DNA of 64,000 bases from a virus. Its lineage: Duplodnaviria; Caudoviricetes. Under the pieces are notes generated by a model. That model saw only the letters and a list, made by a program, of their open reading frames with translations. It did not search any database and was not told the DNA's origin. Shown here piece by piece: positions 460 to 64,000 of the stretch (positions are counted from its first letter, which is position 1; each line of letters opens with the position of its first letter). The stretch covers positions 2,948-66,947 of IMG/VR virus record IMGVR_UViG_3300020047_009529. The stretch is one strand, 5' to 3'. A program made the translations under genes and the position numbers.

Positions 460-600
460 AGCAAAAAGCCCACAGCATTACCGTAAGGTAGTGTTGTGGG
501 TAAGTCCTTACTGATAGGACACAGTAACTATTGGGCTTCTGCCCATTGTGTGCTTATAAGGATTACACAGTAAGTAATCCGCTACGCTTAGGAGTTGGGC

Positions 601-1583: not shown

Positions 1584-1630
1584 ACCAAGAAAGGCAATGT
1601 AATAGTTGCCTTAATTTATTGGAGTAAACC

Positions 1631-1810: not shown

Positions 1811-1872
1811 CACTTAGCCTAACATTCTAAGGGATGTTAGTTATAAGTGTTATTAACCCAAGGAGCAAGACA

Positions 1873-2352: not shown

Positions 2353-2400
2353 TTCGATAAGGGCAGTCAAGCTGCCCTTAATGATTTATAGGAGTTAGGT

Positions 2401-3348: not shown

Positions 3349-3434
3349 GCAAGGACACACGGCACACAAGCGGTACGTTAGTACCGCGCAAGTGTGGGGA
3401 GTGTGTCCGTAGCGATTAATGGGGAGTACATAGA

Positions 3435-3779: not shown

Positions 3780-3930
3780 CATCAGTCAAGCACATATAGA
3801 TGAATTATGTATTTATCTATATGGGCATACCTTTTGGGAAGTATCTGCTGATGAATGTAGACATCTTTTACTATTTATTGCAGATATTCAATCATTGTAT
3901 ATTCAACATTGGATGGCACATCATGAATAG
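3754..3930 (+). CDS. 58-aa hypothetical protein (not in ORF track)
   Basis: AAGGA then ATG 3754; fills the gap between neighbours with short overlaps. Confidence 0.4.
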   Translation: MKLAFAFSDISQAHIDELCIYLYGHTFWEVSADECRHLLLFIADIQSLYIQHWMAHHE

Positions 3931-4213
3931 GCGCATAACAGCAATATGTACATTAGAACAATTTGATGATTTAGTAAATAAATTTAAATTACTGAATATG
4001 TTATCTATAAATATTAAAGAAGGTAATACTCAATTTGTTTTAAAAGAATTTGATAGTGGTTTTGCTATATATGGTTATTTTAAACCAACAGAAGGTGATT
4101 GCATAATTAGCTATGAAGAAATGGTATTTATTTTTGAAATGGCCTATGTCGTAGGCTTAGATATTGCCCTCAATGCCCACTTTCCACCAACGCAGAGTGA
4201 TCCCATTCTGTAA
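3923..4213 (+). CDS. Hypothetical protein, probable member of the small-paralog family
   Basis: Likely start ATG 3923 (MNRRI); C-terminal ISYEEMVFIFEMAYVVG. Confidence 0.6.
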   Translation: MNRRITAICTLEQFDDLVNKFKLLNMLSINIKEGNTQFVLKEFDSGFAIYGYFKPTEGDCIISYEEMVFIFEMAYVVGLDIALNAHFPPTQSDPIL

Positions 4214-16767: not shown

Positions 16768-16999
16768 AGCTCGTATTAAGGCTAAGCGGCAACATGCCAA
16801 GCAATCATCTACTGCTTGGCTTATACATCACAAAGTCCCATTCACGTCTTTCAATGAGGGGACTCATCTTATGATTCCTTTCAACACACTCATGATCCAC
16901 TACTACCCTTCTACAGGTTTGTTTATCTACAATGGTAAGCGTGATCGTGGTATTCGTAATCTACTTTGGCTATTAGGAATCAAACATGATCACCATTGA
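16751..16999 (+). CDS. Hypothetical basic protein
   Basis: Intact ORF overlapping neighbours; IHYYPSTG...RGIRNLL. Confidence 0.7.
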   Translation: MNQVSKARIKAKRQHAKQSSTAWLIHHKVPFTSFNEGTHLMIPFNTLMIHYYPSTGLFIYNGKRDRGIRNLLWLLGIKHDHH

Positions 17000-17444
17000 A
17001 AAATCTATCCTTGATGTTAAGAAGGGTATTGTACTCCAACAGGTAAACTGTAAAGGAGTGATGGGTGCAGGGTTAGCATTGCAATTTGCAAACATGTATC
17101 CAAAAGTATTACCCAATTACCTTAAATACCTTGAAGTGACTTCTAAACCATTAGGTACAGCTAAAGGTATAAAACTTACTGACGATTTACTCATGTTAAT
17201 GGTATTTGGTCAAAATGCTTATGGCACTGAGCAACGTCATACAAACTATGAAGCAGTTATTGCTGCTTTGGTTCAATTCCAGAAATACCTGAAAGACAAT
17301 CCCAATTCAGAAGTCTTTGTACCTTATGGTATGGGATGTGGATTAGGCGGCGGTAACTGGAAAGTCATGCAAGAACTCATCCGTGAGTATCTTGATCCTC
17401 ATTGCAAACTAACAATCTGTAAGGTGACTCAAAAATGTCAGTAA
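16986..17444 (+). CDS. Macro domain (ADP-ribose binding/hydrolysis; phage A1pp/Tk.4-type)
   Basis: QQVNCKGVMGAGLALQF and VPYGMGCGLGGGNW signatures. Confidence 0.9.
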   Translation: MITIEKSILDVKKGIVLQQVNCKGVMGAGLALQFANMYPKVLPNYLKYLEVTSKPLGTAKGIKLTDDLLMLMVFGQNAYGTEQRHTNYEAVIAALVQFQKYLKDNPNSEVFVPYGMGCGLGGGNWKVMQELIREYLDPHCKLTICKVTQKCQ

Positions 17445-18241: not shown

Positions 18242-18943
18242 ATGTTTCCAATCAATCAACTTGTACCAATGGGTAGTGTACTCGCACTACCTAACAAAGT
18301 AGTTACACGTCTGCGTTCTACTGGTTCAGGGGTAAGTGAATCAAACAAGTTTACTACCATTTTACGTGGTGTAAATTGCAGTTATACTGAATCCCTGTTT
18401 GCTGCTGAAATTAAAAATGAGTTGTGTTCAATTGATCGCAAATTTGCTGAAATTGATTACAACTATCGTCAATTGCTGCCTTACGTAGTTTTTGTTTGTA
18501 CAACTACTCGACGTGTATTGAATTACAAACGTGGTAAAGCAGGTAGTGAATCTCGCTTGCATGATCTACGTTCTGTTGGCTTTGGTGGGCATATTGATAG
18601 TCAATTAGACTATTACAGTGAAGCACATTACCGCTACCAATTTGATAAACTCATTTTTGACAATATCAAACGTGAAGTTCAAGAAGAATTGGGATGGGAT
18701 ACTATTGAACCAAGTATCAAACAATTTGAGGGCTTACTCATTAGCAACAACCCTGATCCAAAAGAGGTAGGTCACTATCATTTGGGTATGTTGTTTATCA
18801 TCCAAGTTGATAGCCGCTTTGCTATTCAACCTGAAGTAGGTAATGTTGAGTTGCCTGAATGGGTATCTATTGGTGAGTTGGATCAACTCAATCTTGAGCC
18901 TTGGTCACATGCAGTCAAACCTGTGCTTAACAAATACCTTTAA
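18242..18943 (+). CDS. Nudix (MutT-like) hydrolase, COG4112-type
   Basis: GFGGHID...KREVQEELG split Nudix box, HLG, LEPWS. Confidence 0.82.
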   Translation: MFPINQLVPMGSVLALPNKVVTRLRSTGSGVSESNKFTTILRGVNCSYTESLFAAEIKNELCSIDRKFAEIDYNYRQLLPYVVFVCTTTRRVLNYKRGKAGSESRLHDLRSVGFGGHIDSQLDYYSEAHYRYQFDKLIFDNIKREVQEELGWDTIEPSIKQFEGLLISNNPDPKEVGHYHLGMLFIIQVDSRFAIQPEVGNVELPEWVSIGELDQLNLEPWSHAVKPVLNKYL

Positions 18944-35876: not shown

Positions 35877-38800
35877 TTAGAAGCCTAACAACATTTTAAT
35901 TGGGAAAGGCTCTATAGCTGCTGAAGGTACACCAAGAATTGATGGAGTAAATGGATTACCAATACCACCCAACATACTTGCATCAAGAGCACCTACATAA
36001 TTACCTGAAGCTGCAAGGAATGTTTGAGCCAAAGAAGTAGTAGGATAATTCTTCAATAGATAGAACATAGCTCGTTGAATACGGATGTAGTACTTAGTAA
36101 ACATCACTAAACCCATATCATTGAGATACTGTAATTGCGGTGACGTAGGTACATCATACGCAATAAACAGTTTATCTGCTAAACGAATACCCTCCTCATG
36201 AGTCCCTCCTTCACGTAAGGTTACTTGCTTATACGCAACATACTTAGCCATAAAGTCACTAAATTGTGTGGCATTGGATAAGAATTCGTATGCAGGTGTA
36301 CCTGGTGCCACTACAGCCCATTTAGCGGCTGTCTTAACTCCTTTAGGAATAAAGGCTGTCTTTTGGTCTATTGCATCTGCAAACTTAGTTGTGTATGCAT
36401 ACTCATCTTGACCACTATCCAAATCCTCAACAATCGTAGGCAACATCCCTGCTGCAATAAACTCTTTCAATGGATTACGATTCAGCGAATCATTTACCCG
36501 ATTAAGCTCATTACGAATTTCAGTTGGATTACCAACACCTACAAGTAAGTTCTGTTCAAGACTGACTTTACGGCTCATATCTTTACGGTATTGAGTACCT
36601 GCACGTAAAGCTTCAATACTATCTTCAACAATACTCTTAGGATTAATACCACGAGCCATGAGAATAGACATATTGTTTGTTTGGTTTCCTAACAATGTAC
36701 TGATGTTACGAATAACAATTACGTTTTTAACCACAGCCATAATGTCTTGAATAGCTTGTTCAGCTTTCATGGCTTTAGCTTTAGGATTATTACGCAATAA
36801 TACATTCACCATTTGTACAGTAAAGTTTTCAACTGTATTCCGCAAATCAGGGTCTTTATCAAACATGTTACCAATAGTCAGTTTCTGAAAACCAAACACA
36901 GGACGTAACAAATCAGTACGGATCATCAATGGTGTCTCACCATACAAACCATTTACGTATGCCTTAGTTTTATCAGGTAACAACTTATACAATTCAGCAA
37001 CTCTTGGATCATCTGAATTAGGACTTACTTCAGTAAACTTATGACGTTGTCTATCCCCATAAGCTGCCCAATCTTTATGAATCATATCAAACACAGCTTT
37101 ATTGTGTGTTGGTGTATGACTCTTATCGAAGATACCCCCTTTGTATGTACCTAAGAGAGTAGCAAAGTCATTGTTACGCTCAAGCACACTTGAATCACGT
37201 ACAGCATGGGACATCTCATAGCGATAGTCCATAATAGAACCATCATTGCGATATACAGGAATCACACTTGATGTTTCCATCCTTGGATCATAGCTGTCTG
37301 CTTTAGCGGCCTTAGCTGCTAAGCCTTTACGCATACGAGAAGCAGCTAATTGGTGAGCTACAGCCAAGCCTTTAGGGGTAAGATCATCTTTATTACCTTT
37401 AAAGATTGAAGTACCTTTACGGGCTGTATTCGTGATACTGACTGCTGCTGTAACGAACCGTTGACGTACACTTACATCAGTGGCATACATTGCACGCACA
37501 TCACCTGTAAATGGATCATTCTTGTCCATCTTCAAATCAGCTACTTTCTTAAACCCTAAGCGAATCAAATCAGCTTCTTCTTCTTTAGAAGTAGCAATTG
37601 AAATCTCTTTATGTCGGTTAGTAATTTCAGGTAAATAACCATCAATCATGTTTGTAGTGCTTGATTGGAATAAGGTATCTTTCGATTCCTTAATCATTGA
37701 GCCATGATACTGAAGTACAGTACTCATAGCACTTTGGTTACTCTCAAGTAGTTTTACGATTAATTGACGTTGAGATTGATCCATGTACCTAATTGCATGA
37801 AATGCTGCATACTGATCAATCAAATTCACAACATCTTTAGCTGCAACATCATAGTAGTTCTCCAAACCTACATTACGTGCAATAGCATCACTGTTTTTAG
37901 CAAGAGCTGTACGGCCTTCACCTTTAATTTGATATATTGCTAAGTCTTTAGCACGTACTTTATACACCTCACTATCTTCATATTGATTTAACTCTTTAGT
38001 TAATTCAGCAATAGCTTTGTCAACAACAGCATTAGATTTGAAAGCTTCAGTAATACCTTTAATACCAATATGCTTTAACATGACTTGCATGTTAGTACGC
38101 AACATACCTGCACTAATTGCATTACGTTCCTCTTTAGTCAACTTGTTATCAAACAAACTTAACAAGTCAGATTTAGTAACGTCAATTAAACGCTTACGAT
38201 GTTGCTGCAATACGTTGTGCTTACGAATTAAATCGTACACAGCTTCACGCATTGTACTTGGTTCAGCAAACTCAGAGAGTAATTCAGCAGCCATACCATA
38301 AGGTTTACCAGAATGCCAAAAGTCTCTCCAATCCTGCATAACTCGCATGTCTTCCATGAAGTTACCACGGAGAATACTTTGAACTACTTTAGTACTTCCA
38401 CGTACACTACCGCGCTTAGACTTAGCCATCCCATTAAGTAAGTCTGCACCTTTCTTACCAAACAATTGACCATAAGCATTACTTACTGCTTGTGCAGAGC
38501 TGATCCGATCAAGCACCTGATTAATTAAACCATCTTTACGTTGGTTCTTAATCTCAATAAGCTGCTTAGCAAGAATAGGTAATTTACCACTTGCAGTATC
38601 AGTACGAAGTGTACGGGTCAAATAACCATTAACCCAATTCATAATTGAGTTGATAAATGATGTCAGCTTTTCATAGTAAGATTTTTTAGTACTGCTACGC
38701 TCCCGTGTACTTACTACAGTATCCATAAGCTCACGCACTTCTTTTGAACCAAGCGAAGCAGCAATGAACTTAGACATGTAGTCACTACGACCGTTAGATG

Positions 38801-41800
38801 CATTACCTTCAAACAGTGCATTGTACTTGGCATTAGCTAGGGACTTATCGTCTTCAGTAGCTGTAGACCAATCACCTTTATAGAAGTCTTCAGGCTTGAG
38901 AGTCTTACGAGCATCCTCATAGACTTTGAGCATCTCACGATATACAGGAGTGTTAAAGCCACCATCTAAAGCTGCCTTGATACTGACCTCAAGGGACTCA
39001 ATCACAAATCGCTCTTGAGCTGTCAGGTTAAATCCTACACGACCAAGGCTACTGCTATAAGGTGCTTTACCCTCAGTGACTAAGCTTTCCCATACTTGGA
39101 ATGGTGTGTACTGATTAGTGTCATATCCTTGGATCAGGCTGTATGCCCCTTGTACTGCACTATTAAACACTTCTTTCAAATGACTGTTGAAATCATTATC
39201 AGATGTTGTGTTCAGGCTATCAAAGATGTCAGAAACACTATAGCTATCTACCTCATCCACTGCTGAGAACAATAAATCCTGCTGTCTAGGTTTAGCAGTA
39301 ATATTCTGATTCACTGCCATCAGAGAGGTACCATTGTAAATCAAAGAAGCCAATGCTGTGTTATCACTTGGCTTAATACCTAAGTAATTCACAATACTAT
39401 CAATAAGCATTTGGAATATTGACTTAGCTTCAAAACGTCGATTAGTAACCTTGGTAACAGGCACTTGCATCAACACTTCTTGGAATACTTTGGAGCTAAA
39501 TCCTACCGCTACGAACTCCTCTAAATTAGTCAAAGCGTATTCAATGATAGCTTTTTGCTTATCATTAAATGTGTTCTTGTTTTTTTCATAGAAGTCTCTA
39601 GTAGCTTCCATAGTTTGAGTTAATTCTTTAATTAAGGCTTTAGCTTTAGCATCTTTAGACTTAATGGCAAGAACCGTCAATGCATGTACGTACTCATGCA
39701 AGATTAAACCACTATTGGCTCTATCAGCTCTAACTACAATTACATCTTCGCCATTACTGTTGTAAGTATGAAGACCACTGTATTTACCATTTTGCAATTG
39801 ACTAATATCTACATCAAGATCGTTACTTGCAGTATTAGCATCTACCACATATACCTTAATATTTTTGCCCAATCCTTTATTGATTAGGGCAACTAAGCTT
39901 AGTTGTATAGAAACACCATTTGTTGCTTTAACTTGCTTAGCTAACTCAGGCAACAAATCACCAAGAGTAATAAAACTACCAAGTGCATCAGTCAACTTTT
40001 TAGTAAAACTGTTCTGTAGTATTACAGGCTTTGTAGTAGGTTCAGCTTGTACTACAGGTTTAGTAGGTTCAGCTTGTACTACAGGTTTAGTAGGTTCAGC
40101 TTGTACTACAGGTTTAGTAGGTTCAGCTTGTACTACAGACTCATTTACTTTAATTTCCTCAGTAGGTTTAGTAGATGTATCCTGTTTTACAGGTTTATCA
40201 CTAAATTTATTTTTATTGTATTTAGCATCTTTTAGTTCCTCTTTTAAGTACTGTGGAATAATGGAATCTACTAAGTCTAAATACTTTTGACGTTTGATTT
40301 CTAATTTATCAATTTCTTTAAGCAACAGGCTACGGTCTGCATTAGTCAAAGCATACTGACCCCCTTCAGTACCGTACTGATTGACGTGCTTAACCTTAGT
40401 AAGATTACGAAGCTTAGCAATATCATCATTAAAAGCATTATTGACAACTATCTTCAAAGCTTCAGCAGTTGAGTAAGATTCTAATTCCAATGACGGAAAG
40501 AACCCCTTTTCTGTTTTAGTAAGTGTATAAAGTGCGTTATACAGAATAGTATTGCGATCTTTTTCACTAAACAGGTTACTTTCAAACATACCTTTCAATG
40601 GTGCAAAGAACGCATTCAAGGATTCACTTGCTAAGTGATAACGAGATTGCACTGTAGTGAATGCCTGATTCTGGATAGTAGCCATCTTCACTACTCCAGT
40701 AACAGATGAACCATTAGCATCATGGTGGTTGGTTGCAGCTACACTACTCGAAGTAGTAGCAGTCACAAAAGCATCCATTGATTGAATTAAAATAGCACTA
40801 ATACCAACACCTTTTGACTCAATCACACGCTTAGTCACAGGTGTATTGTACGTCTTACGAGTACCCAACATAGGTGCTTTAGCAAACACATGATTAGATG
40901 AATACTCGTAATATTTGTCACGCTTAAAGTTGTAAGTACGGTGTGATGCTTCTGTAGCATTCTTACCATTAAACACACTGTTAGCACTACGAATCGTAGA
41001 GTCATAAGGTAATAGCCGACTAACAACTTCAGCTTCCATTGCATCGCTCATTGGTTCAAGCTGTACATAAGACATCTCACCATCTTGCTTCATATAACGT
41101 GTTGGAATATTCAACTCATTTTCTGCTTCAACTACTTTATACATTGCTTCATACAATGCACCAAATAATTCAGCACCTACATTCGCTAAGGTAGTGACTT
41201 GCTTACGGCTATCAATCAAGTCACCTGCTACTCTTTGCAAAGCAAACATAGTAGCTTTACCACGTAACTTACCATCTAATTTAGCAACACCTTTTACAAC
41301 GGCTTTTGGAAACTCACTATCTAACAATTCTTCTTTAGTTGCATTAACTAAATTAAATCTAGCAAGTTGTGTACGATTTGCAATATTAATGAGGTCTACT
41401 AATATATTTAGATTATCCTCAATAGTTTTCATACCTTCAGGATTGTTGATGTTGTCTTCAACAGCCTTATAAATCATATTAATCAAGTTATATGAAATAG
41501 CCCGATTAATTGAACCAAAAGAAGAACCATAGACGAAAGGTGTAGTTGCTACTTTAGCTCCTTTACGACTACCAAAATTCTTATCAAAATAGTTTGTAAT
41601 TGCAGCAAACTGTTCAACAACAACCCTTAGGTAATTATCTTTATCTGCTGCAATACTAGAGATTAGATCACTCCATATTTCTTTTTGAGCTTCACCAATC
41701 TGCTGATAAACATCTTTACCGCCTTTGGCTCGATAGCCTACGTTAGTGACTGTATCAGTATCAAAACCATATAAGCCACCTGCTTCAAGTAGATTGGTGC

Positions 41801-44800
41801 TATACGCTCCATAAGCTACAACAGAAATGATAAGGCCATTGGTCACACCGTCAGACTCATAGGCTAATGAGGTAGTGAGCTGTGTTCCTGCTGCTTTAGC
41901 ATCAAAGTAATCTACAAGGCTATCCAAGGCCATGACACTTAGCCCTGCCATACCAAACTCACTTACTGCTTCTTGGATTGCATTCAGGTCTGCTAAGCCA
42001 CCATTACGCATCTCACGCATGGCTTCTACACCTTTAGCCACTACAGGACTTGTATTGATGTATTCCAAGAATGATGGGATATACAAACCTGCTGTAGTCT
42101 TATCATGTGTGGTGTTAATAGTGAGTGGTGCTTCCTCCATGTTTGCCCCTAGAGCAAGTAAGTAGTAGCCAAAGGGTGTAATAGTGCCATCTGCATTGAA
42201 TGGGGAATCTATGTCAATAGTGACCGTATGCTCTTTAAGACCAATCATAGAGCGACTAATCTTATCAGCCTGTTCATTTAAAACAGTGGCATCAATACCA
42301 ATACGGTTTACTTCCCATACCTTCATAGGCATGTACATATCAGGGTAGGTATCCCCTTCAATTGAGCCAAGGAAATCAAGGTTATTGTTGATACTGCGGA
42401 TGATCCCCTCATTGATAGCCTGTTGCTCTAAACGGGTACTAATGTGCTTATTTGCAAGCTCCTCAATAGGCACATACCCTAAAAGTCTTAGCAATGCATC
42501 GTGGTTCAAAGCACTCATAGTCTGATAGAAGTTGACCATATTAGTATTAACTGAGTATGGCTTGGCTTGCATACGCTTAACTTTTTGAGCCAAATCAAGA
42601 GGAATCTCAGTACCAGTACTGCTAATGGTCTTTTGACTCAACCCTTTGATTGGTTCAAATGAAGGATACCGTAACTCATTCTCAGTACCAAATAATGAGT
42701 TCATCAAACCTTGAGTGCCACGAGTAACATCCATTACACGTTTTACAAATTTATTTGGTTCATTATTTTCCCAAATAGGTCTTGCAAGGTAAACACGGTA
42801 AGCTGAGTTATTAGCAATTAGGGGGTCTTTCTCTGCTTCCTGCTCTGATGCATCAGAGATCATATTAGCAAATTCTCTAAATTCATCTAATGCATAAGAA
42901 GTCTCCTCAAGTAAATTACCGTCAAGCATAAGTACGTAAGCAATAGTACCTAACGCACTTTGCAATTTATCTTTACGAGTTGAGCTTAAACCTTTATCAA
43001 GTTTAAACCCTAAAGACTTGTATGCACGCTCACCTAAACTTTGAATAATTTGGTTAGTGAATTGACCTGCATCAGTAAACTCTTTGAATACTTCAAGCGG
43101 AACAATAGCAGTTTCTTTAAAACCAAATAGTGCTGCTACTTGTTCCATGTTGCGATAACGCTTACCACCATTCTCAGCTACCCAACTAAACATAGAAGCT
43201 GTAATAGCAGTCTTGATGTTTTCATCAATAGTACCATCAGGATTAATCAAGTATTGAATCCAATCCTGATATTTGAATTTACTATCAGCACCTTTATTAC
43301 GAATAAAAGATGCAATCTTTTTACTATGTAGTTCATTAAACTTACTGAATGCAACCAAAGCATCTTCCTGTTTAGGCGTTAATGCACCTAAAATACTTGC
43401 AGCATTTGTCAACAAGTCTTCTTTGAGCCAAGACATGAAGTCTTTATTAGCTGCAAGAAAAGTAGACTTAACTTGTTTGAAGCTTGCAACTAACAAGTTT
43501 GCTTTTTGATAACCCGTCGATTCAGTACGATTATCTTCTTCAGATAAAGCACGTTCAAACTCTTTATCACCCTGCATGGCAGTAAGGCCATCAACTACAT
43601 CTTCAATTACTGGATCAACCGATTCAGAAGTAGATTCTACAATAGTTGTACTCTCACTATCTGTTGCAATAGTCTCAGGATCAGTATTCAGGTTTGCAGT
43701 ACCTACATCTTGATCATTTACATCCTCTTCTACAGGAATTTCTACAGTACCTGTAGAAGGATCATTAACTACGTATGTCCATTCAGCATGTAGACCACTA
43801 GGATTTTTTACGTAACCCTTAGAGTATAGATACTCTGCTAAATCTTTCTCACCTGTATTAAACGATGTAATAAGAAAGTCAGTAATAAATACTGCTTTTG
43901 CTGCAATAGCTTTATCTAACTCAGGTTTAATCGCTTCAAGTTTAACAGCATCTTTTCGATTACCATTAATGGATACGAATACTTTCTCCCCTTCAGTATA
44001 TGTACCTTTATTAGCTAAATCACCATACTGATCTTCATAGTAAGCAGTACTGCTATTAGGAGCACCTTTACCAATAAAAGAGTCTGCTGCATTAATTTTA
44101 GATAATTCTTTTCTCCGTGTATCACTGCTAATATTTCCTTTTGTAATAATAATTGGCTTATCGTTCCCTACTTCAGTTTTATCTGTTACAGGGGTAGTCA
44201 CTTCATTACTTAATTCAATATCTTCTGCCTTTGGTTCAGCTTTAGTATCAAGTGAGCTTAGTGTTTTAGCATAAACATCTTTGATAGCTTGTTTAGCTGC
44301 ATTAGCAATCTCATCACCAACGTATTGTTTTCTTGGTTCAAACTTACCTGTTAGTTGGTTTTTAGTATTGTAATTTTCAATATCTCTAGTACCAATACCA
44401 GCAAATTCTTTAGTTAAAGTAGGTGTAGTAGTAGCTTGGAATACACCCTTAGCTCTATTAAATTCGTACCATCTTTGAGTATTAGTATCCCAAACATAAA
44501 CAGGACGAACCTTGTCAGTTAGTTTGATAGCTAATTGGATAGCAGTATTAGTACCACCAGTAACACCTTTTTTATTGGGCGTTAGTGAACCAATAGCAAA
44601 TACACCATCAGAATTAGCTACTTGATAATAATTACGTGCTTGTAAGTTACCAGCAATATCATCCTTATGGTTAGTACCAAGTAGACTATTAACGGTATCT
44701 CTAGCTTTATTTAATGCAGCAGCAGTAAGGATAACTGCTTTAACACCAGCATCTTTAAGCTTTTTAGATAGGTTACTATTATTCTCATCTCGATAGTGAT

Positions 44801-47800
44801 TATGGTTAGTAACACCAAATTCACGACCAACAGTATCCCACATGGTATCTGCACCATAAGCACCGCCAGAATGGTTGGTATAACCCTGTAATGCTAATTC
44901 AGCTTTAGTTTCTGTAGCTGCTTCTGGCTTTACATCAGCTTTAGTTTCTTCTTTACTTGGTTCAACTTGCGATAGATAAGCTTCATTCAGTGCTAGGATA
45001 AACCAGTTCTCACCTCCAGTTTCCCATACAGTGTTCTTTGAAGTTGGTTGGTGTGTAGCTGCCAATATCCACTTAGAACCACCCTGCTTAGTAATTCCAA
45101 CTACTAATGCAGGGTACTGTTTTAATTTAGCTTTAAGAATAGCAACCATGAGTCTGTAATTATTACTAACCTCTCTAGCAGGTTTAGTTCTACTTTCTGT
45201 AGGATGTTTAATTGCTTGAAAAACTGCTTCAGCATCTTTATAAGTTTTACCACCAAATTCTATTGGATAAGACTCTGTAATATTACCCTTTGATTTAGCC
45301 AATTCAGTAGGATTAGTAAGAGCAGCAGCCAAACCTTTTGCATTAGAACTGATTTCTGTAGTAGCTAACTCAATATCTTCTGCTTTTGGTTCAGCCGCTT
45401 TAGCTGCGCGTTCAGCTTCTTTCTTAGCTTTATCTGCTTGGTATTGATTACGGATAATACGATCTAAGTTGTTGTAGTCATCAAGGGCAGATTGAAAGTC
45501 TTCAGTAACTGTTACTTCTTCAGGTTTAACTGAATTAAAATAATCAACAGTTTTACCAATAGATTCAACTTCAGTACCTATACGCTGAATAAGATTACCA
45601 CTGCCTTTATGAATTAACATACCACCATTTTCAACTAGGCCGTTTACATCAGCACTTGTTTGGTAGTTACCCGCTTCTGCAAGTACCCACTCATTACCTG
45701 ATTTCCAAACAGGAATAGCCAAACCTGTTGGTACTTTTGCAAATGCTTCTTTAGCTGCTTTATGTTTTTTGATATGTGAATCTTGAAATGAAGTAAGTTG
45801 AGTATACAAACGATTTAATACATTTGTATTACCTGAGTTCTGAGCAGTGTTCCACTCTTTCACATATTCTTTCAAACCTCGAAAGTTTTTTACATCAGAC
45901 TTAGAGCCAGTAGTAATATCACCTGTTACTAAATCCAAATCTTTAGATGAATTCAAAGCAACAATAGCTTCTGAAAACTTACGTAGATTATTACGTTGAT
46001 CATCAGTTAATCCATTAGTCAAATCATCAACTACTGAATTAATCTTAGATACGTTTTCTGGCAATGGCTCTAACTCAATAGTAGCATCATAAGTTGAATA
46101 ATTTGCTTTATTATGCACCTTATTCAATCGACTAAATTGACTCTGCAAATCTTCTTGAGTTGCCTTAGCTTTATCTAAAGAAGCTAAATAAACTTCAGGT
46201 GTAGCTTCTTTAACAATATTATAAGAAGCTGTCATTGCTGCATTAGCTTTAGTAATTAAATCTGTGTAAAGCTCTTTGGATTCATCACTCAATTCAGGGT
46301 TAGCAAGAATTTCTTCAAGCTTTGCTTCATTACGTGTTACTGCCCCATTAACCACTTTTTCATATTGAGCATAGGTTGCTGTTTGAGCATCAAGTAAGTC
46401 CTGTGCATCATTTACAGTCTGACGTGCATCATTGAAGACTTGATCTTTATCTTCTTGGTTCTCAGCTTGTGAGTAAGCAAAGACATATCGTTTAACCGCT
46501 TCAGATGGGTTATACGACTTAGATTGAGGATTAACTAAGTCTGCTACATCAGTAGTAGTGTCTGTAGGTGCTTCAGGGTTAATAGCAGGTTTACCTGTAA
46601 ATTCATTAGCAATAGCCCCAGGTGTACCAACTACCCCACCTGACAATCCCCCAAGAGCTGCACCAATACCAACATCAACAGGGTTATCAAAGCCACCCAA
46701 CGAACCTAGACCACCCTCAATTGCTGACTGCCAGCCTTCCGCAAATGTTTCAGCTCCTGTAGGTGCAGCAATACGCCCTGTTGAGCCAAGGATAGAAGTA
46801 GCCATCTGTAGGGGTGTTTTAGCTACTGCTTCTGTAGATTTAGTAGCTATTCCCAGTGGGGTAGTTACAAGTTTATCACCTACAAAGTTTAACCCTGCGT
46901 ATGCCAAGTCATACAAAGCCATATCTGCTTTTTCTTGCTGTGTAGGTAAACGTCCTTCACGAGCTGTAAACTGAGCCGTAGACTTGGCTGCTTGATCAGT
47001 CAATGAAGATACTGCACCTATAAAGGGTGCTAAAAAGTAAGGTAAAGACTCAGCAATAGTTGTAGGCACAGTAGTCAAATTATTAGTAGCGTTATCAAAC
47101 GCACTCATAAATGCATTGCCTAATTTTGCTGTATCTGATTTTGCATTGATAACATTAGGATCACCTGCAACATTCTCTTGCAAGTTTTGCATATTTCGTT
47201 GGTTATACCATTCTTTAGTATTTAAAGCATTTGGTGTTTTACCATCAGCTTCATACCCCCGTTCTTTTAATACTGCTTCACGGATAGCTTGAGCATTATC
47301 TAAATCTTCACGAAATGTATTTCCTGTTTTTGGATTACGAGTATTTACCAATGATATCTCCCAATTATCAATTTGGGCATAAGATGTCCAAATTTCAAAC
47401 ATCGTCTGTTCACGTAATAATTCTTCGTCATTAGGTTTTTTTGCTAATTCAATTTTAAATTTTTCATAATCACGTGCTAGTGAAAGTCTCGATTGATTTT
47501 TATGTAAAATGTTTGAATACGCTTCTTTAACCCGATCAGGTACAGTGGATTCAATCATAGCTGCATCTACTGTATCTGGAATTGTTTTAATATTCCGATA
47601 AATGTTGTTTGCAGTAGCAGCTACAGCTAATGACATGTTTGCTAAGTTAGCTGGAACACTAATCAAAGGATTAGTACTTTCTAATTGAGCTGTATTAACA
47701 ATTGGATGATCTTTATCTAAGTTATCGTACTTTTTATTTGCTTCAAGATTAGCTACTTCTTGGCGTGCTACTTCGGCAATAGTACGTGGATCAGTACCAC

Positions 47801-48023
47801 CACCATTCTTGACATGTTCTGCTACACTACGGCCTTTGACAGCTTGTTGTTCTTGTGGTGCATAGCTCACCAAAGGACTTGCAGCTTCTTGTGTTGGTTC
47901 AGGTGTTAGTACTTGTCGTTGTGGTGCTTGGGCAATAGTCGATAGCAATGCTTGAGCCATATCATTAGGATTCAAGACTGTACCATCAGGGAGGGTGTAA
48001 GATTGAAGGATCGTATTGGACAT
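35877..48023 (-). CDS. Virion-encapsidated RNA polymerase (N4 gp50-like), 4048 aa, with inserted NADAR-like, SLOG-like and unnamed domains
   Basis: Giant ORF with no Cys seen in the translation; motifs YESDGVTNG (A), RKGAKVATTPFVYGS (B), QSMDA...HHDA (C); position between the RuvC-like gene and the ejection genes. Confidence 0.95.
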   Translation of the reverse strand: MSNTILQSYTLPDGTVLNPNDMAQALLSTIAQAPQRQVLTPEPTQEAASPLVSYAPQEQQAVKGRSVAEHVKNGGGTDPRTIAEVARQEVANLEANKKYDNLDKDHPIVNTAQLESTNPLISVPANLANMSLAVAATANNIYRNIKTIPDTVDAAMIESTVPDRVKEAYSNILHKNQSRLSLARDYEKFKIELAKKPNDEELLREQTMFEIWTSYAQIDNWEISLVNTRNPKTGNTFREDLDNAQAIREAVLKERGYEADGKTPNALNTKEWYNQRNMQNLQENVAGDPNVINAKSDTAKLGNAFMSAFDNATNNLTTVPTTIAESLPYFLAPFIGAVSSLTDQAAKSTAQFTAREGRLPTQQEKADMALYDLAYAGLNFVGDKLVTTPLGIATKSTEAVAKTPLQMATSILGSTGRIAAPTGAETFAEGWQSAIEGGLGSLGGFDNPVDVGIGAALGGLSGGVVGTPGAIANEFTGKPAINPEAPTDTTTDVADLVNPQSKSYNPSEAVKRYVFAYSQAENQEDKDQVFNDARQTVNDAQDLLDAQTATYAQYEKVVNGAVTRNEAKLEEILANPELSDESKELYTDLITKANAAMTASYNIVKEATPEVYLASLDKAKATQEDLQSQFSRLNKVHNKANYSTYDATIELEPLPENVSKINSVVDDLTNGLTDDQRNNLRKFSEAIVALNSSKDLDLVTGDITTGSKSDVKNFRGLKEYVKEWNTAQNSGNTNVLNRLYTQLTSFQDSHIKKHKAAKEAFAKVPTGLAIPVWKSGNEWVLAEAGNYQTSADVNGLVENGGMLIHKGSGNLIQRIGTEVESIGKTVDYFNSVKPEEVTVTEDFQSALDDYNNLDRIIRNQYQADKAKKEAERAAKAAEPKAEDIELATTEISSNAKGLAAALTNPTELAKSKGNITESYPIEFGGKTYKDAEAVFQAIKHPTESRTKPAREVSNNYRLMVAILKAKLKQYPALVVGITKQGGSKWILAATHQPTSKNTVWETGGENWFILALNEAYLSQVEPSKEETKADVKPEAATETKAELALQGYTNHSGGAYGADTMWDTVGREFGVTNHNHYRDENNSNLSKKLKDAGVKAVILTAAALNKARDTVNSLLGTNHKDDIAGNLQARNYYQVANSDGVFAIGSLTPNKKGVTGGTNTAIQLAIKLTDKVRPVYVWDTNTQRWYEFNRAKGVFQATTTPTLTKEFAGIGTRDIENYNTKNQLTGKFEPRKQYVGDEIANAAKQAIKDVYAKTLSSLDTKAEPKAEDIELSNEVTTPVTDKTEVGNDKPIIITKGNISSDTRRKELSKINAADSFIGKGAPNSSTAYYEDQYGDLANKGTYTEGEKVFVSINGNRKDAVKLEAIKPELDKAIAAKAVFITDFLITSFNTGEKDLAEYLYSKGYVKNPSGLHAEWTYVVNDPSTGTVEIPVEEDVNDQDVGTANLNTDPETIATDSESTTIVESTSESVDPVIEDVVDGLTAMQGDKEFERALSEEDNRTESTGYQKANLLVASFKQVKSTFLAANKDFMSWLKEDLLTNAASILGALTPKQEDALVAFSKFNELHSKKIASFIRNKGADSKFKYQDWIQYLINPDGTIDENIKTAITASMFSWVAENGGKRYRNMEQVAALFGFKETAIVPLEVFKEFTDAGQFTNQIIQSLGERAYKSLGFKLDKGLSSTRKDKLQSALGTIAYVLMLDGNLLEETSYALDEFREFANMISDASEQEAEKDPLIANNSAYRVYLARPIWENNEPNKFVKRVMDVTRGTQGLMNSLFGTENELRYPSFEPIKGLSQKTISSTGTEIPLDLAQKVKRMQAKPYSVNTNMVNFYQTMSALNHDALLRLLGYVPIEELANKHISTRLEQQAINEGIIRSINNNLDFLGSIEGDTYPDMYMPMKVWEVNRIGIDATVLNEQADKISRSMIGLKEHTVTIDIDSPFNADGTITPFGYYLLALGANMEEAPLTINTTHDKTTAGLYIPSFLEYINTSPVVAKGVEAMREMRNGGLADLNAIQEAVSEFGMAGLSVMALDSLVDYFDAKAAGTQLTTSLAYESDGVTNGLIISVVAYGAYSTNLLEAGGLYGFDTDTVTNVGYRAKGGKDVYQQIGEAQKEIWSDLISSIAADKDNYLRVVVEQFAAITNYFDKNFGSRKGAKVATTPFVYGSSFGSINRAISYNLINMIYKAVEDNINNPEGMKTIEDNLNILVDLINIANRTQLARFNLVNATKEELLDSEFPKAVVKGVAKLDGKLRGKATMFALQRVAGDLIDSRKQVTTLANVGAELFGALYEAMYKVVEAENELNIPTRYMKQDGEMSYVQLEPMSDAMEAEVVSRLLPYDSTIRSANSVFNGKNATEASHRTYNFKRDKYYEYSSNHVFAKAPMLGTRKTYNTPVTKRVIESKGVGISAILIQSMDAFVTATTSSSVAATNHHDANGSSVTGVVKMATIQNQAFTTVQSRYHLASESLNAFFAPLKGMFESNLFSEKDRNTILYNALYTLTKTEKGFFPSLELESYSTAEALKIVVNNAFNDDIAKLRNLTKVKHVNQYGTEGGQYALTNADRSLLLKEIDKLEIKRQKYLDLVDSIIPQYLKEELKDAKYNKNKFSDKPVKQDTSTKPTEEIKVNESVVQAEPTKPVVQAEPTKPVVQAEPTKPVVQAEPTTKPVILQNSFTKKLTDALGSFITLGDLLPELAKQVKATNGVSIQLSLVALINKGLGKNIKVYVVDANTASNDLDVDISQLQNGKYSGLHTYNSNGEDVIVVRADRANSGLILHEYVHALTVLAIKSKDAKAKALIKELTQTMEATRDFYEKNKNTFNDKQKAIIEYALTNLEEFVAVGFSSKVFQEVLMQVPVTKVTNRRFEAKSIFQMLIDSIVNYLGIKPSDNTALASLIYNGTSLMAVNQNITAKPRQQDLLFSAVDEVDSYSVSDIFDSLNTTSDNDFNSHLKEVFNSAVQGAYSLIQGYDTNQYTPFQVWESLVTEGKAPYSSSLGRVGFNLTAQERFVIESLEVSIKAALDGGFNTPVYREMLKVYEDARKTLKPEDFYKGDWSTATEDDKSLANAKYNALFEGNASNGRSDYMSKFIAASLGSKEVRELMDTVVSTRERSSTKKSYYEKLTSFINSIMNWVNGYLTRTLRTDTASGKLPILAKQLIEIKNQRKDGLINQVLDRISSAQAVSNAYGQLFGKKGADLLNGMAKSKRGSVRGSTKVVQSILRGNFMEDMRVMQDWRDFWHSGKPYGMAAELLSEFAEPSTMREAVYDLIRKHNVLQQHRKRLIDVTKSDLLSLFDNKLTKEERNAISAGMLRTNMQVMLKHIGIKGITEAFKSNAVVDKAIAELTKELNQYEDSEVYKVRAKDLAIYQIKGEGRTALAKNSDAIARNVGLENYYDVAAKDVVNLIDQYAAFHAIRYMDQSQRQLIVKLLESNQSAMSTVLQYHGSMIKESKDTLFQSSTTNMIDGYLPEITNRHKEISIATSKEEEADLIRLGFKKVADLKMDKNDPFTGDVRAMYATDVSVRQRFVTAAVSITNTARKGTSIFKGNKDDLTPKGLAVAHQLAASRMRKGLAAKAAKADSYDPRMETSSVIPVYRNDGSIMDYRYEMSHAVRDSSVLERNNDFATLLGTYKGGIFDKSHTPTHNKAVFDMIHKDWAAYGDRQRHKFTEVSPNSDDPRVAELYKLLPDKTKAYVNGLYGETPLMIRTDLLRPVFGFQKLTIGNMFDKDPDLRNTVENFTVQMVNVLLRNNPKAKAMKAEQAIQDIMAVVKNVIVIRNISTLLGNQTNNMSILMARGINPKSIVEDSIEALRAGTQYRKDMSRKVSLEQNLLVGVGNPTEIRNELNRVNDSLNRNPLKEFIAAGMLPTIVEDLDSGQDEYAYTTKFADAIDQKTAFIPKGVKTAAKWAVVAPGTPAYEFLSNATQFSDFMAKYVAYKQVTLREGGTHEEGIRLADKLFIAYDVPTSPQLQYLNDMGLVMFTKYYIRIQRAMFYLLKNYPTTSLAQTFLAASGNYVGALDASMLGGIGNPFTPSILGVPSAAIEPFPIKMLLGF
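40037..40137 (-). repeat. 27-bp coding tandem repeat (VVQAEPTKP x~4) in the vRNAP hinge
   Basis: Unit GTACTACAGGTTTAGTAGGTTCAGCTT repeated near-identically. Confidence 0.9.
44211..45395 (-). repeat. Pair of 30-bp direct repeats (AEPKAEDIEL) at 44211-44240 and 45366-45395
   Basis: 28 of 30 bases identical by eye. Confidence 0.9.
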
Positions 48024-50886: not shown

Positions 50887-53328
50887 TCACACTTTACCAC
50901 TATTAAGCAATGCTTCAGTGTAAATACTTGGCATTCCGACAGTAAGCTCAGTAATGCCAACAATTCCTAACATTTTATTCAAAAAAGTTTCAACTTTTTC
51001 ACCATATATAATTTCACCCCTAGTTTCTGAATAAAGTGGATCATATACGTATTGGGTTTGTTTTAATAAAGCATAAGCTTCATCAAGCATTTTTGTACCT
51101 TCATCAATATTATTAGATAACTTTTCCATTTCTTTCATGACTTTTTCAAATTCAAGTTTTAACACTTCAGCATAAGTTATCATTAATTTACTAAAATAAT
51201 TTAATAACCGTTTAGTGTCAAAATCAACAACTACAATAGCCAATACGTTAGCTAAAATAATAGCATCTCCCTCATCCATACCAAAGTAATTAACTAATAA
51301 ATCAATTGTTAATTTTACAGCTACATTAATTAAAACTACTGTAGCTACTGCATAGACAACAGCCCATAACGTCAAAGATTGACCTTCTGAAGGTAAAGCA
51401 AGGATAACAGCAATAACAAAAGTAAATACTTTAAACCAAGTACGGGCATACCAAGGTGATTTAATAACTTGGGATGTATTAATAATAATCATTTGACAAT
51501 GTCCGTATAGCTGCTCTCTTTTACGTGGAGGTAATTTATTAGCAATACTTTTCTCAAAAGGTACAAGTAAATTATCTGATCCCCGATTTGCCCAAGTAGC
51601 GTAACCTGATTGAACCAACTCAGAAGAAGCTAATTCATAGGCAACGATTTCTACATACTCTGTAGTGTTAATTTGTTTACGGTAAATATGGGCATGAGTA
51701 GTTGATTTATCAAATGGAGCAGCAGACATGATTAATACTTTAGAATAGTTAAAACTATTAACCGCACCAATTGATCCTGTAATAACTTTTTTACCTACAG
51801 CATCAAAGTGAAATCTTTGCTGATATACATTGTCACTGTATAACTGATACATACCATTCTTTAAATTATAAGTAGCGTAATTCAACCTAAAAGTTTCATC
51901 AGCTTTATTTTTAGGTACAGTGTCTAAGGTTGGTAATAAATTATAGAAATGATCAAAATACTCATACAAGTATTCATTCTGTTCTTTGGTTTTAGGATTT
52001 GCAGGGCAATGCAAAGCAATAGCAATTTGTTTAACATGCTCCAATGAACCAATGCTATTATGTATCTCATCACATAAGTAGTCATAATCCATACCCATAC
52101 GCTTACACAACTTCTTAGAAGATTTATACTCAAATGTAGTATGTAATGATTCATGGTTAAGTTTACGACCATTAAACCGTATATAAATTCTAGGGAAGTA
52201 AGTACCTAAAGAAGTACCCATACTAAAAATATTATCAAGTAAACTGTTAGTACCACTCCCGTACTTATAGGTAAAGTAGTCTGTGTAAGTATGACCCCCT
52301 GATACGTAATCAAAACTCATCATAAAATAATCAGGATTACCTACATCTACTACTACACTATTATCTTCTGCATTTGGATCAATGTTCTCCATGTCATCAT
52401 CATCAAGTGCATTAGTCTCATCAATAGCACCTGAAAATTCATAAGATAAAAAATCTTCTACTACTTCACAAATATAATCATAAGTTTTATTAATTACACG
52501 AATCTCTATTAAACCAACAATAGATATAATATCACTGACTGTAGTAGTAACTAAACTTACGTAACTACTTGGGGGAGTACCTACTGTAGTTGTAGTATCA
52601 CTGATTATTGTAGATGTAATGGTATCTTTTACAATTGTTTGCTCACTTGACTGTTGCATACTAAAAGTAAATGTAAATATATCATTTGGAATAGCTGCAT
52701 CACTATATGGTTTGATAACTCTATTACGATCTTCAGTACGGGTTAAAGTTGCCCCATAGTTATAAGCTAAACCAACGGTATCTAATTTAGATTCATCAAT
52801 AGTGGTATCTATTGTATTTTGACAATAAGTAATCTCACCATCCTCTAAATAACAATCTACACCGTAGAAAGCATTTAATACTTCTAATTTATTATTAGTT
52901 ACGTTATACCCATAAAGTGTTTTTAACAGTTGCCAACTAATATGGGAGTTATTAGTTTCTTCAAACTTTAAATAATTAATTGTAGCAGTTACCCCATAAT
53001 TGGTAAGTAACCAATCTAGAAAATAATCATTCATTGCTACTGTATCATTTGTCAATTCAGTAGTGGTTACTGCACCATAAGCATAATTGCTAATGTTTGC
53101 TTCTACCCATCTACCTGCTTTACGAATCTTATTAGGTAATGCATTCATAACTGCATCACTAATAGCATTACCAATAGTTTTACTATTTGGATTAATGTTA
53201 ATCTTGGAATGAGTCATGATATAACTAAATACAGCTTGTTTTGCACTATCAGGAAATTCATTATCACCAATAAGTGGAACTACTGCTGTACTTACAACAG
53301 TCTTTTTCTTACCACCAAAAATACTCAT
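50887..53328 (-). CDS. Large structural protein (N4 gp53-like)
   Basis: MSIFGGKKKTVVS start, WYARTWFK followed by hydrophobic segments; synteny. Confidence 0.8.
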   Translation of the reverse strand: MSIFGGKKKTVVSTAVVPLIGDNEFPDSAKQAVFSYIMTHSKININPNSKTIGNAISDAVMNALPNKIRKAGRWVEANISNYAYGAVTTTELTNDTVAMNDYFLDWLLTNYGVTATINYLKFEETNNSHISWQLLKTLYGYNVTNNKLEVLNAFYGVDCYLEDGEITYCQNTIDTTIDESKLDTVGLAYNYGATLTRTEDRNRVIKPYSDAAIPNDIFTFTFSMQQSSEQTIVKDTITSTIISDTTTTVGTPPSSYVSLVTTTVSDIISIVGLIEIRVINKTYDYICEVVEDFLSYEFSGAIDETNALDDDDMENIDPNAEDNSVVVDVGNPDYFMMSFDYVSGGHTYTDYFTYKYGSGTNSLLDNIFSMGTSLGTYFPRIYIRFNGRKLNHESLHTTFEYKSSKKLCKRMGMDYDYLCDEIHNSIGSLEHVKQIAIALHCPANPKTKEQNEYLYEYFDHFYNLLPTLDTVPKNKADETFRLNYATYNLKNGMYQLYSDNVYQQRFHFDAVGKKVITGSIGAVNSFNYSKVLIMSAAPFDKSTTHAHIYRKQINTTEYVEIVAYELASSELVQSGYATWANRGSDNLLVPFEKSIANKLPPRKREQLYGHCQMIIINTSQVIKSPWYARTWFKVFTFVIAVILALPSEGQSLTLWAVVYAVATVVLINVAVKLTIDLLVNYFGMDEGDAIILANVLAIVVVDFDTKRLLNYFSKLMITYAEVLKLEFEKVMKEMEKLSNNIDEGTKMLDEAYALLKQTQYVYDPLYSETRGEIIYGEKVETFLNKMLGIVGITELTVGMPSIYTEALLNSGKV

Positions 53329-53340
53329 AACATTCACCAA

Positions 53341-53365
53341 TAAATAAAGGGGCATAAAGCCCCTT
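53341..53365 (-). terminator. Terminator
   Basis: AAGGGGC...GCCCCTT with a T-rich tail on the minus strand. Confidence 0.65.
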
Positions 53366-63297: not shown

Positions 63298-63468
63298 GCA
63301 CCTACACTTTCGCTTTAAGGTAACGACTTGTTAGGTGTTCTCGCTATACAAGTTGATTGACCTACCCCCAACACTCTAATGAAGTTTGCCCAAGCTTTGT
63401 TAGAGTGTTTTTTTTTTATCAAGCAGCACTTTCGTGCTGTATGCCCTTTGAACCAAAGAGTAAAGACC

Positions 63469-64000
63469 ATGTCACAGCTTCCTACAAAGCTCACTCAAGA
63501 TTATCTTGAAAGCCTTGTTGTCCATCATGAATACAACTTTATCCCTAACACAAGCATTACTGTTTGTACTTTGTTCCTTCAAAATGGGGCAAAGATTATG
63601 GGCAAAAACTACGGCTCTATTGATTCAAACAACCAAGATTGGGAATTGGCTAAACAGTATGCCTACAAGGATGCATTTGATCAGTTGTGGGAGCTCGAAG
63701 GCTACCTCCTACGTCAACGCATGTTTGAGCAATACAAAAACCATGAGCCTGTTCTTGTATCACCTGAGCTGAAGTCTTATGTTGGTGTAAAGTTGGTACA
63801 CGCCAAGCCAATGACAGGTGATGACTATAAAGCCCTAAAGGGACTTCAAACTACCCCTGAAATCAAAGCAAATGATCAAGGCTACTGGGTTCAATACCAA
63901 GATGGCTATACCTCATGGTGTCCCAAAGAAGTCTTTGAACAGGCCAATACCTGCATTGAAGGTCAGTTTGACTTTTCCATTGCAATGCTTTGCCATAAAG
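63469..64000 (+). CDS. Truncated multi-domain protein: gp49/Sf6-gp66-like domain + YVGVK...GY.V.Y.DGY.SW.PK domain + probable start of DUF2829 (Tad2-like)
   Basis: ATG 63469, frame open to the window end. ITVCTLFLQNG...YAYKDAFDQLWELEGYLL; KSYVGVKLVHAKPM...GYWVQYQDGYTSWCPKEVFEQA; then FDFSIAM. Confidence 0.7.
   Translation, partial: MSQLPTKLTQDYLESLVVHHEYNFIPNTSITVCTLFLQNGAKIMGKNYGSIDSNNQDWELAKQYAYKDAFDQLWELEGYLLRQRMFEQYKNHEPVLVSPELKSYVGVKLVHAKPMTGDDYKALKGLQTTPEIKANDQGYWVQYQDGYTSWCPKEVFEQANTCIEGQFDFSIAMLCHK

Follow-up and report, generated by a model that had tools for sequence, protein, structure and literature searches.

The DNA considered here is a stretch of 64,000 nt (bases 2948-66947 of the 66,947-bp IMG/VR virus record IMGVR_UViG_3300020047_009529), referred to below as the window. 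It contains a single open reading frame (ORF) encoding an N4-like virion RNA polymerase (vRNAP), in which three small domains, termed modules 1, 2 and 3, stand between the N-terminal domain and the polymerase domain (Table 1). The identity of these domains, their exchange between phages and the role they could play at the start of infection are discussed below.

The polymerase gene and the inserted segment

A tblastn search with the vRNAP ORF matched 211 phage records (about 26-30% identity), the majority of them Schitoviridae vRNAPs. Two features by which members of this group are recognized were found: the polymerase and C-terminal domains are collinear with Schitoviridae vRNAPs, and ExDGxxxG, the hallmark motif defining N4-like vRNAPs (PMC10654107), is present at residue 2056. 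Pfam gave a weak match to vRNAP_dom_2 (E 0.0057); apart from it, searches with the whole vRNAP and with each module separately returned nothing relevant. No close relative at the DNA level was found among cultured phages. The closest cultured vRNAP is that of Acinetobacter phage Presley (3492 aa; the N4 vRNAP has 3500 aa).

According to blastp, residues 33-879 align with residues 29-891 of the Presley protein, and residues 1414-4045 align with residues 920-3488 (31% identity in the latter part), in collinear order. Residues 880-1413 (534 aa) are flanked by these alignments and lie opposite merely about 28 aa of Presley, and therefore represent an insertion, the size of which accounts for the excess length of this vRNAP over those of N4 and Presley. 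The sequence-only reading of the region had described an extra segment of about 540 aa (residues ~877-1419) matching the excess over the ~3500-aa N4 vRNAP, with three modules separated by low-complexity linkers. This description is confirmed in all of these points, and the peptide strings quoted in support of it are all present in their places. The borders of the modules (Table 1) were set by hidden Markov models (HMMs) made from homologues of each module; the inter-module linkers are rich in E/K/T/A/D.

A 100-residue low-complexity linker (residues 907-1006) joins the membrane-associating N-terminal domain of the N4 vRNAP to its polymerase domain (PMC13434306). The N4 protein is described as flexibly linked 'beads on a string', which are unfolded during tail passage; once in the cytoplasm, the polymerase and C-terminal domains regain their fold, tethered at the entry site (PMC13434306). 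In the window vRNAP, the stretch of residues 1422-1478 is the analogue of this N4 linker. According to a Kyte-Doolittle scan, the N-terminal domain lacks strongly hydrophobic segments, and its topology was therefore taken from the N4 model. Modules 1 and 2 are flanked by a 30-nt direct repeat (28 of 30 positions identical), which encodes AEPKAEDIEL.

Two further elements are located downstream in the same protein. Tandem VQAEPTKP repeats (residues 2631, 2640 and 2649, followed by a slightly longer fourth unit; ~40020-40135, minus strand) make up another low-complexity linker on the C-terminal side of the polymerase domain. HEYVH, an HExxH motif, is situated C-terminal of these repeats at residue 2776 (39678-39698, minus strand) and possibly corresponds to the Zn-peptidase-like element described for polyvalent proteins of the N4 type.

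Table 1. Features of the vRNAP gene and of other genes in the window (positions are those of the window)
Feature	Position	Strand	vRNAP residues	Basis or remark
vRNAP gene, N4-like virion RNA polymerase, 4048 aa	35877-48023	-	1-4048	single ORF
N-terminal domain, carrier part upstream of the cargo	45387-48023	-	1-879	aligns to Presley 29-891
30-nt direct repeat, copy 1, just before module 1	45366-45395	-		sequence; contains TGAACCAA
Module 1, compact NADAR with His at the E/D site (predicted)	44973-45356	-	890-1017	model and profiles
Linker 1, E/A/K/T-rich	44898-44972	-	1018-1042	composition; TGAACCAA at 44957
Module 2, circularly permuted SLOG-class (DprA/cpYpsA-like) Rossmannoid (putative)	44253-44897	-	1043-1257	profiles
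Linker 2, between modules 2 and 3	44166-44252	-	1258-1286	holds repeat copy 2
30-nt direct repeat, copy 2, inside linker 2	44211-44240	-		also left border of the module 3 swap (run X3)
Module 3, unnamed small Rossmannoid, NADAR-associated	43761-44165	-	1287-1421	HMM family and model
Acidic T/S-rich low-complexity linker before the polymerase domain, 57 residues	43590-43760	-	1422-1478	composition
Polymerase domain and C-terminal domain	35877-43589	-	1479-4048	Presley alignment
Presley gp82 / N4 gp53-like ORF, upstream of vRNAP	50887-53355			homology
Early-region gene, canonical NADAR (PF08719, residues 29-156 of its product) and module-3-family domain (165-285)	720-1583	+		Pfam E 4e-21
Macro-like gene	16986-17444	+		Pfam E 0.0019, 18.6 bits vs cut-off 22
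Nudix-like gene	18242-18943	+		Pfam E 0.0015, 19 bits vs cut-off 21.1
ORF with N4 gp49 / Sf6 gp66-family domain, runs off the window end	63379-63999	+		PF13876, E 9e-18

The three modules and their families

The AlphaFold2 (AF2) model of module 1 (pLDDT 96.8, pTM 0.90) has the YbiA-like alpha+beta fold by which the NADAR superfamily is recognized. In a structural search by VIA among 48,161 chains, ranks 1-3 were occupied by all three solved NADARs, namely 8bau_A (Z 9.6, root-mean-square deviation (rmsd) 2.7 Å, 113 aligned residues), 2b3w (YbiA; Z 9.2, rmsd 2.5 Å, 107 aligned residues) and 8bat_A (Z 5.8), and the next chain had Z 4.2. Foldseek gave 2b3w as the best and sole credible match (probability 0.98). 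NADARs also came first when the family profile was searched against 177,635 PDB sequences (8bau, E 0.01; YbiA, E 0.006-0.02).

Glu43 and Lys50 of module 1 are paired in the HMM alignment with E43 and K50 of 8bau (SSEQYF..K), which in the Phytophthora NADAR bind ribose and pyrophosphate (PMC11543638). Glu43 and His102 are invariant in the module 1 family, and Lys50 and Trp111 are nearly so. His102 is probably equivalent to E125 of the Phytophthora NADAR; this pairing is based on residue spacing (9 residues from His102 to Trp111 versus 8 for E125-W133) and not on superposition. According to Schuller et al. 2023 (PMC11543638), NADARs associated with DarT1 have Asp in place of the catalytic Glu, and phage NADARs have His. 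Thus, Glu, Lys and an acceptable residue at the putative E125 position are present in module 1, which keeps every residue conserved at 85% or more in its family. Because of the fold match, the Glu/Lys pairing and the invariant His102, module 1 is assigned as a compact His-type NADAR, and the NADAR-like character proposed for it earlier is upheld by the AlphaFold model, VIA, Foldseek and profile searches alike. By analogy, it is predicted to act as a NADAR-type ribosyl N-glycosidase.

Homologues of module 1 occur as free-standing proteins of ~130 aa, IMG/VR has 35 loci with the module, and fusion to a superfamily 1 (SF1) helicase was also found elsewhere. A tblastn search of 50,697 GenBank phage records gave no module 1, PHROGs gave no match, and NCBIfam returned nothing significant, the faint match being 'NADAR family anti-phage protein' (E 0.075). 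Origin of module 1 as a recent copy of the canonical NADAR of the same phage was considered and rejected (22-column match only, E 0.097).

Module 2 matches phrog_768, 'DprA-like DNA recombination-mediator protein', over module residues 3-130 (E 1e-14), and its phage homologues bear the same 'DprA-like' label in RefSeq, which is an annotation and not an experiment. Many homologues are free-standing proteins of ~215 aa without a Pfam domain. Neither DprA (PF02481) nor cpYpsA (PF12694) of Pfam matches the window copy. Among 26 members of the family, matches below the Pfam cut-off were obtained to cpYpsA in four (best E 0.0065), to DprA in three (0.0089) and to Nuc_deoxyrib_tr in two (0.0041); these are the only recurrent sub-threshold Pfam families of module 2, and they converge on a single fold class. 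The cpYpsA and DprA families presumably belong to SLOG, and nucleoside 2-deoxyribosyltransferase to DrHyd. SLOG and DrHyd are sister superfamilies (PMC9503650).

Circular permutation was assessed by hhalign against an alignment of 79 bacterial DprA Rossmann domains. The unpermuted module aligns over 17 columns (E 0.085), with its C-terminal FAGIGTR opposite the N-terminal IVGSR strand of DprA. When the module is cut at residues 150-165 and the last 60-70 residues are moved to the front, the alignment covers 137 columns (E 0.0039) and pairs four motifs (AGIGTR/VGSR, SGGAYGAD/SGLAxGID, RNYYQV/RNRII and GGTxxA/SGSxxTA). Modules 1 and 3, used as controls, gave E 0.08-0.22 against DprA. The strand-1 'GxR' element is thereby placed at the C-terminus of module 2, as expected of a permuted form, with modest significance. 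Single sequences of E. coli Smf and of a module 3-cpYpsA fusion protein (P0074) gave no significant hhalign match to module 2, and its sequence profile found nothing credible in the PDB. A homologue examined in the ESM Atlas falls into virus-dominated unnamed clusters, one of which has 11% DprA. The earlier proposal of a permuted YpsA/SLOG-like domain thus holds as regards the SLOG class, and the permutation is suggested, at modest significance, by the permuted alignment and the weak cpYpsA matches.

Every residue conserved at 85% or more in the family is retained in module 2 as well. In two vRNAPs, those of Klebsiella phage Pylas and Alteromonas phage PT15-A5, a homologue precedes the polymerase; others lie inside giant coding sequences (CDSs; 5801 and 4328 aa) of two crAss-like phages, the 5801-aa one being cr130_1 gp79. 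The gp79 CDS (L048) is interrupted in frame by 74 TAG codons, which are its only internal stops; several of these TAGs fall at Gln-conserved columns of module 2, which fits a reading of TAG as Gln.

Module 3, described in the sequence-only reading as an unnamed domain, proved to be a real family. An exhaustive HMMER search gave 475 representative clusters at E<=1e-3, including 106 at E<=1e-10; among the 150 clusters listed, some members are free-standing (~130 aa) and many lie within proteins of 2000-4800 aa. The family has no match in Pfam or in the PDB sequence set, and the window copy has none in PHROGs or NCBIfam. In GenBank phages it was detected by tblastn in one record, Vibrio phage Kuja. 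Thus, Pfam, PHROGs and NCBIfam fail to recognize two families, the 130-aa His-type NADAR and module 3; both are almost absent from the GenBank phage records and common in metagenomes.

In the AF2 model (pLDDT 87), module 3 folds as a small Rossmannoid built of three parallel strands and a hairpin; strand 1 is followed by a Gly-rich loop and then by Ser-Ser-Thr. The best structural Z (5.9) was obtained with class-I methyltransferases at rmsd 4.4-5. HAD-IIA (NagD-type) chains gave Z 4.8-5.7 at rmsd ~3 over chain residues ~70-200, and such proteins also surfaced in the profile search of PDB sequences (E 0.4-1.4). Foldseek (PDB, BFVD) and VIA returned generic Rossmann folds only; no receiver-like chain was among the 50 matches listed, a result that still leaves room for a cRec-type fold. 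Together, these comparisons support a generic Rossmannoid fold for the modelled domain and nothing narrower. The ESM Atlas (score 0.84) leads to a cluster with 45% ADP-ribosyl-cyclase family, which is a lead only. Identity with DUF4326 (PF14216) was rejected: 0 of 30 members match it, and DUF4326 is a separate adjoining domain in two of the proteins (P0013, P0027).

Fusions of module 3 to NADAR (P0028, P0044), to DUF4326 (P0013, P0027), to cpYpsA (P0074) and to SF1 helicases were found; P0027 additionally has a DarT1-type NADAR fragment. An early-region gene in the window encodes a canonical NADAR together with a module-3-family domain (hhalign of the module 3 profile with its product: 99.8% probability, E 3e-29), so that NADAR-type and module-3 domains each occur twice in the phage. 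The copy in the early gene is better conserved than that in the vRNAP, in which four conserved positions are changed, the differences including D27E, D67E and Y109F, and a conserved Arg is lost. The Arg deletion is shared by the vRNAP copy of another protein (P0037).

Exchange of the modules between phages

The modules co-occur in other giant proteins in the orders M3-M1, M2-M1, M1-M2, M1-M3, M2-M3 and M3-M2. At least 26 of 65 large proteins with module 3 are N4-like vRNAPs, where this module stands before the polymerase (about 21 cases) or between the polymerase and the C-terminal domain (three).

A second type of carrier is represented by crAss-like virion RNA polymerases (phi14:2 gp66 type). 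Among giant IMG/VR ORFs with module 1, 23 have a single DFD[IVG]D motif and 17 resemble cr130_1 gp79. In 14 of these 17 the match lies around DFDID of gp79, and the other three (L013, L020, L024) match the module-2 region of gp79 only. The packaged crAss-like RNA polymerase has DFDxD as its catalytic motif (bioRxiv 10.1101/2020.03.07.982082). No N4-type polymerase core was found in five IMG/VR records with module 1, the ORFs of which turned out to be crAss-like. Like the window vRNAP, the crAss-like enzymes are packaged giants carrying modules 1, 2 and 3; however, their polymerase fold is non-homologous (two-barrel, in contrast to the T7-like fold of the N4 type), and their modules are C-terminal to the catalytic motif, whereas those of the window vRNAP precede the polymerase. 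Consequently, the same cargo is carried by two non-homologous injected polymerases.

Exchange of the cassette is directly evidenced by two cases. One of them is a 48-kb metagenomic contig with N4-type polymerase Pfam domains (L040). Between its compared part (17.6 kb) and the complete 64-kb window, nucleotide similarity is confined to two blocks, which correspond to module 1 (44940-45361, 94.6%) and module 2 (44259-44879, 94.7%). In this contig, the two modules are separated by 2.2 kb, which include an SF1 helicase, and lie upstream of the N4-type polymerase domains. The dN/dS ratio between the window and L040 is 0.16 for module 1 and 0.18 for module 2; both modules are under purifying selection. 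The region from module 1 through the polymerase domains (L040:6489-17652) is divided by gene calling into a run of at least nine genes on one strand, with changes of frame that reflect either assembly indels or a genuinely split vRNAP.

The other case is a natural replacement of module 3. The 20 public runs in which parts of the window were found belong to 12 studies, on wastewater, activated sludge and fresh water. The whole cassette is present, with ~1% differences, in contigs of two of the four runs compared; window parts without contig cover in runs X3 and X5 were not counted as absence. A sludge contig (run X3) joins position 43766 to 44211 via 564 other nucleotides, the gene being otherwise near-identical, so that module 3 (residues 1272-1419) is replaced. 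Contigs from several runs diverge at 45359, 44873-44879, 44940, 44263 and 44211, that is, at module borders. The slot is empty in Presley and N4, and with this swap it could be regarded as variable and not as a conserved core part of the polymerase, in line with the expectation of the sequence-only reading.

The 8-mer TGAACCAA occurs 55 times in the window versus 3.5 expected (~15-fold); 100 shuffles gave at most 10. It often closely precedes a ribosome-binding site. The cassette holds five copies (44231, 44333, 44586, 44957 and 45386), including those in both 30-nt repeats and in linker 1. L040 has 20 copies per 17.6 kb, and N4, Presley, Pylas and PT15-A5 have approximately the chance number. 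This 8-mer could be a promoter/UTR (untranslated region) element or a recombination hotspot.

Possible counter-defence and alternative roles of the cassette

The vRNAP contains at least two unrelated effector-type domains that are shuffled in relatives, as is typical of polyvalent proteins. The reading favoured here, with a probability of roughly 0.58, is that it is a polyvalent ejected protein with tether-borne counter-defence cargo. Three autonomously folding, horizontally mobile domains would have been recombined into the tether between the N-terminal and polymerase domains. In addition to the NADAR, this cargo would include a nucleotide- or ssDNA-binding domain of the SLOG class (module 2) and a Rossmannoid partner of NADARs (module 3), the latter link being supported by the independent fusions elsewhere and by the early NADAR gene of the same phage. 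Packaging of the cassette in the virion is suggested by homology to the N4 and Presley vRNAPs and by synteny with the gp53-like gene. If the N4 scheme applies, the vRNAP would be packaged in few copies and would pass through the tail as 'beads on a string', and the modules would refold in the cytoplasm, tethered at the DNA entry site (PMC13434306). Cargo that is packaged and ejected would be present before any phage gene expression.

As judged from the known properties of the families, the cargo could remove or degrade ADP-ribose-type modifications or NAD-derived signals of host immunity. Candidate targets are DarT-type ADP-ribosylation of single-stranded early promoter DNA and TIR/SLOG-type messengers derived from ADP-ribose (ADPr); a similar proposal has been made for NADAR/SLOG/Macro sets of viruses (PMC9503650). 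The counter-defence role attributed to the cassette on these grounds would provide a concrete case of podovirus counter-defence at time zero, with beads of the tether, and not free head proteins, acting where the first ssDNA appears. Packaged proteins for anti-defence or host takeover, such as T4 Alt, are likewise delivered with the DNA and act before phage gene expression; they are, however, separate small head proteins, whereas the modules discussed here are beads on the polymerase tether.

Several observations weigh against this interpretation. PF08719 and PF22397 gave zero matches at E<=10 with module 1 and 10 homologues, while the same Pfam NADAR model scores the other NADAR of the phage (720-1583) at 76 bits; this supports placing module 1 in the NADAR superfamily but outside the Pfam NADAR family. 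About 30 residues of YbiA are missing from module 1. If these correspond to the region of R79, W89 and R93, the pyrophosphate contacts of the Phytophthora NADAR (PMC11543638), substrate binding by module 1 may differ. The SLOG assignment of module 2 is derived from a PHROG annotation, weak Pfam matches and a modest hhalign P-value, and the vRNAP copy of module 3 may be inactive, given its lost Arg. Furthermore, DprA-type domains bind ssDNA, and this property and the SF1 helicase of L040 are both compatible with DNA handling.

DNA handling is the main rival explanation, although a rather unlikely one. Module 2 and the helicases of relatives would then help the polymerase to capture, unwind or protect single-stranded hairpin promoters and to pull in the first DNA, and the NADAR and module 3 would be secondary. 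Such a role is consistent with the alignment of permuted module 2 with the DprA Rossmann domain, with the location of the L040 helicase between near-identical modules 1 and 2 upstream of the N4-type polymerase domains, with the SF1 helicase fusions of modules 1 and 3, and with the Pylas and PT15-A5 vRNAPs, which have module 2 alone at a comparable place before the core. However, N4 and Presley manage without any such module, and modules 2 and 3 often occur on their own as small proteins. The recurrent partners NADAR, DUF4326 and cpYpsA make up a published ADPr-processing network, in which SLOG-helicase fusions are read as sensor-regulated repair (PMC9503650).

A housekeeping function, in which the modules process NAD-caps, ADPr-1''-phosphate of tRNA repair or reactive ribosylamine metabolites (YbiA-type), appears improbable. 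Pre-packaging such an enzyme at few copies per virion would have no reason, neither an RNA ligase nor a KptA context was seen near the cassette, and frequent swaps with near-identical transfer between otherwise dissimilar contigs are typical of conflict genes. Nevertheless, just one NADAR activity has been known for long, N-glycosidase damage control in riboflavin synthesis, and a link of these proteins to RNA repair has been drawn (PMC9503650, PMC11543638); the phage also carries ribonucleotide-reductase-type nucleotide genes. It is very hard to credit that the domains are inert spacers or decaying passengers, merely lengthening the tether between anchor and polymerase with no activity of their own, in view of the low dN/dS values, the retention of all residues conserved at 85% or more in modules 1 and 2, and the maintenance of the same families as free-standing genes. 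The four deviating conserved positions of the vRNAP module 3 copy would agree with decay, and the insertion site is a ~100-aa low-complexity linker in N4, a kind of site that tolerates insertions.

The counter-defence reading could be extended to a wider one, which as a whole is no more than tentative and would require four parts to hold jointly. The N4-type tether and the C-terminal side of the crAss-type polymerase would form a general 'cargo bay'; co-infecting phages would exchange domain-sized genes by recombining at short stretches of common sequence (the 30-nt repeats and TGAACCAA at borders); module 3 would be a catalytic partner of NADAR, adding a new step in ADP-ribose processing; and the tethered cargo would erase DarT-type ADP-ribosylation in cis on the first entering ssDNA. 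In practical terms, the linker looks permissive; if packaging holds, it could serve for loading N4-like virions with proteins of choice in laboratory delivery experiments.

The novelty claimed for the architecture in the sequence-only reading was overstated, because polyvalent vRNAPs (PMC5512222) and NADAR/SLOG/DUF4326 fusions (PMC9503650) are already known and the modules are also carried by crAss-like polymerases. The part of the claim that stands concerns the N4-type linker: the literature searched contains no report of an N4-type vRNAP with this cargo set in its tether. The same search gave no report of module 3 as a family or of a compact His-type NADAR family, and none of nucleotide-level module exchange or of cargo sharing between two polymerase classes.

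Among known systems, the N4-vRNAP-like polyvalent proteins (Iyer, Burroughs, Anand, de Souza, Aravind 2017, PMC5512222) are likewise giant packaged and injected polymerases with shuffled effector domains. Their cargo consists of an ADP-ribosyltransferase and a Zn-peptidase, in contrast to the NADAR, permuted SLOG-class domain and module 3 mapped here to the linker; NADAR, SLOG and YpsA are absent from the main text of that paper. With the viral ADPr-processing network (Iyer et al. 2022, PMC9503650), the cassette shares the NADAR-SLOG partnership, the DUF4326 and SF1 helicase partners and a predicted early deployment. In this network YpsA-like SLOG domains are fused with Macro, NADAR and DUF4326, and the domains are 'typically standalone proteins', whereas here they are embedded in a vRNAP; no name for module 3 was found there. 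NADAR hydrolases (the DarT1-associated antitoxin, Phytophthora NADAR 8BAU and E. coli YbiA 2B3W; PMC11543638) share with module 1 the fold and the Glu/Lys of the ADPr site. Module 1 differs from them in its size of ~130 aa and the His in place of Glu/Asp, as well as in the missing YbiA residues. The DNA-binding N-terminal extension of the DarT1 type is presumably absent from module 1, because 130 aa leave no room for it.

The remainder of the window provides some context. No DarT gene is adjacent to module 1. The canonical NADAR gene and the sub-threshold Macro-like and Nudix-like genes (Table 1) fit the co-occurrence pattern of the ADPr-processing network (PMC9503650). The ORF at the window end contains a domain of the N4 gp49 / Sf6 gp66 family, and N4 gp49 itself is annotated as a DUF2829 protein.

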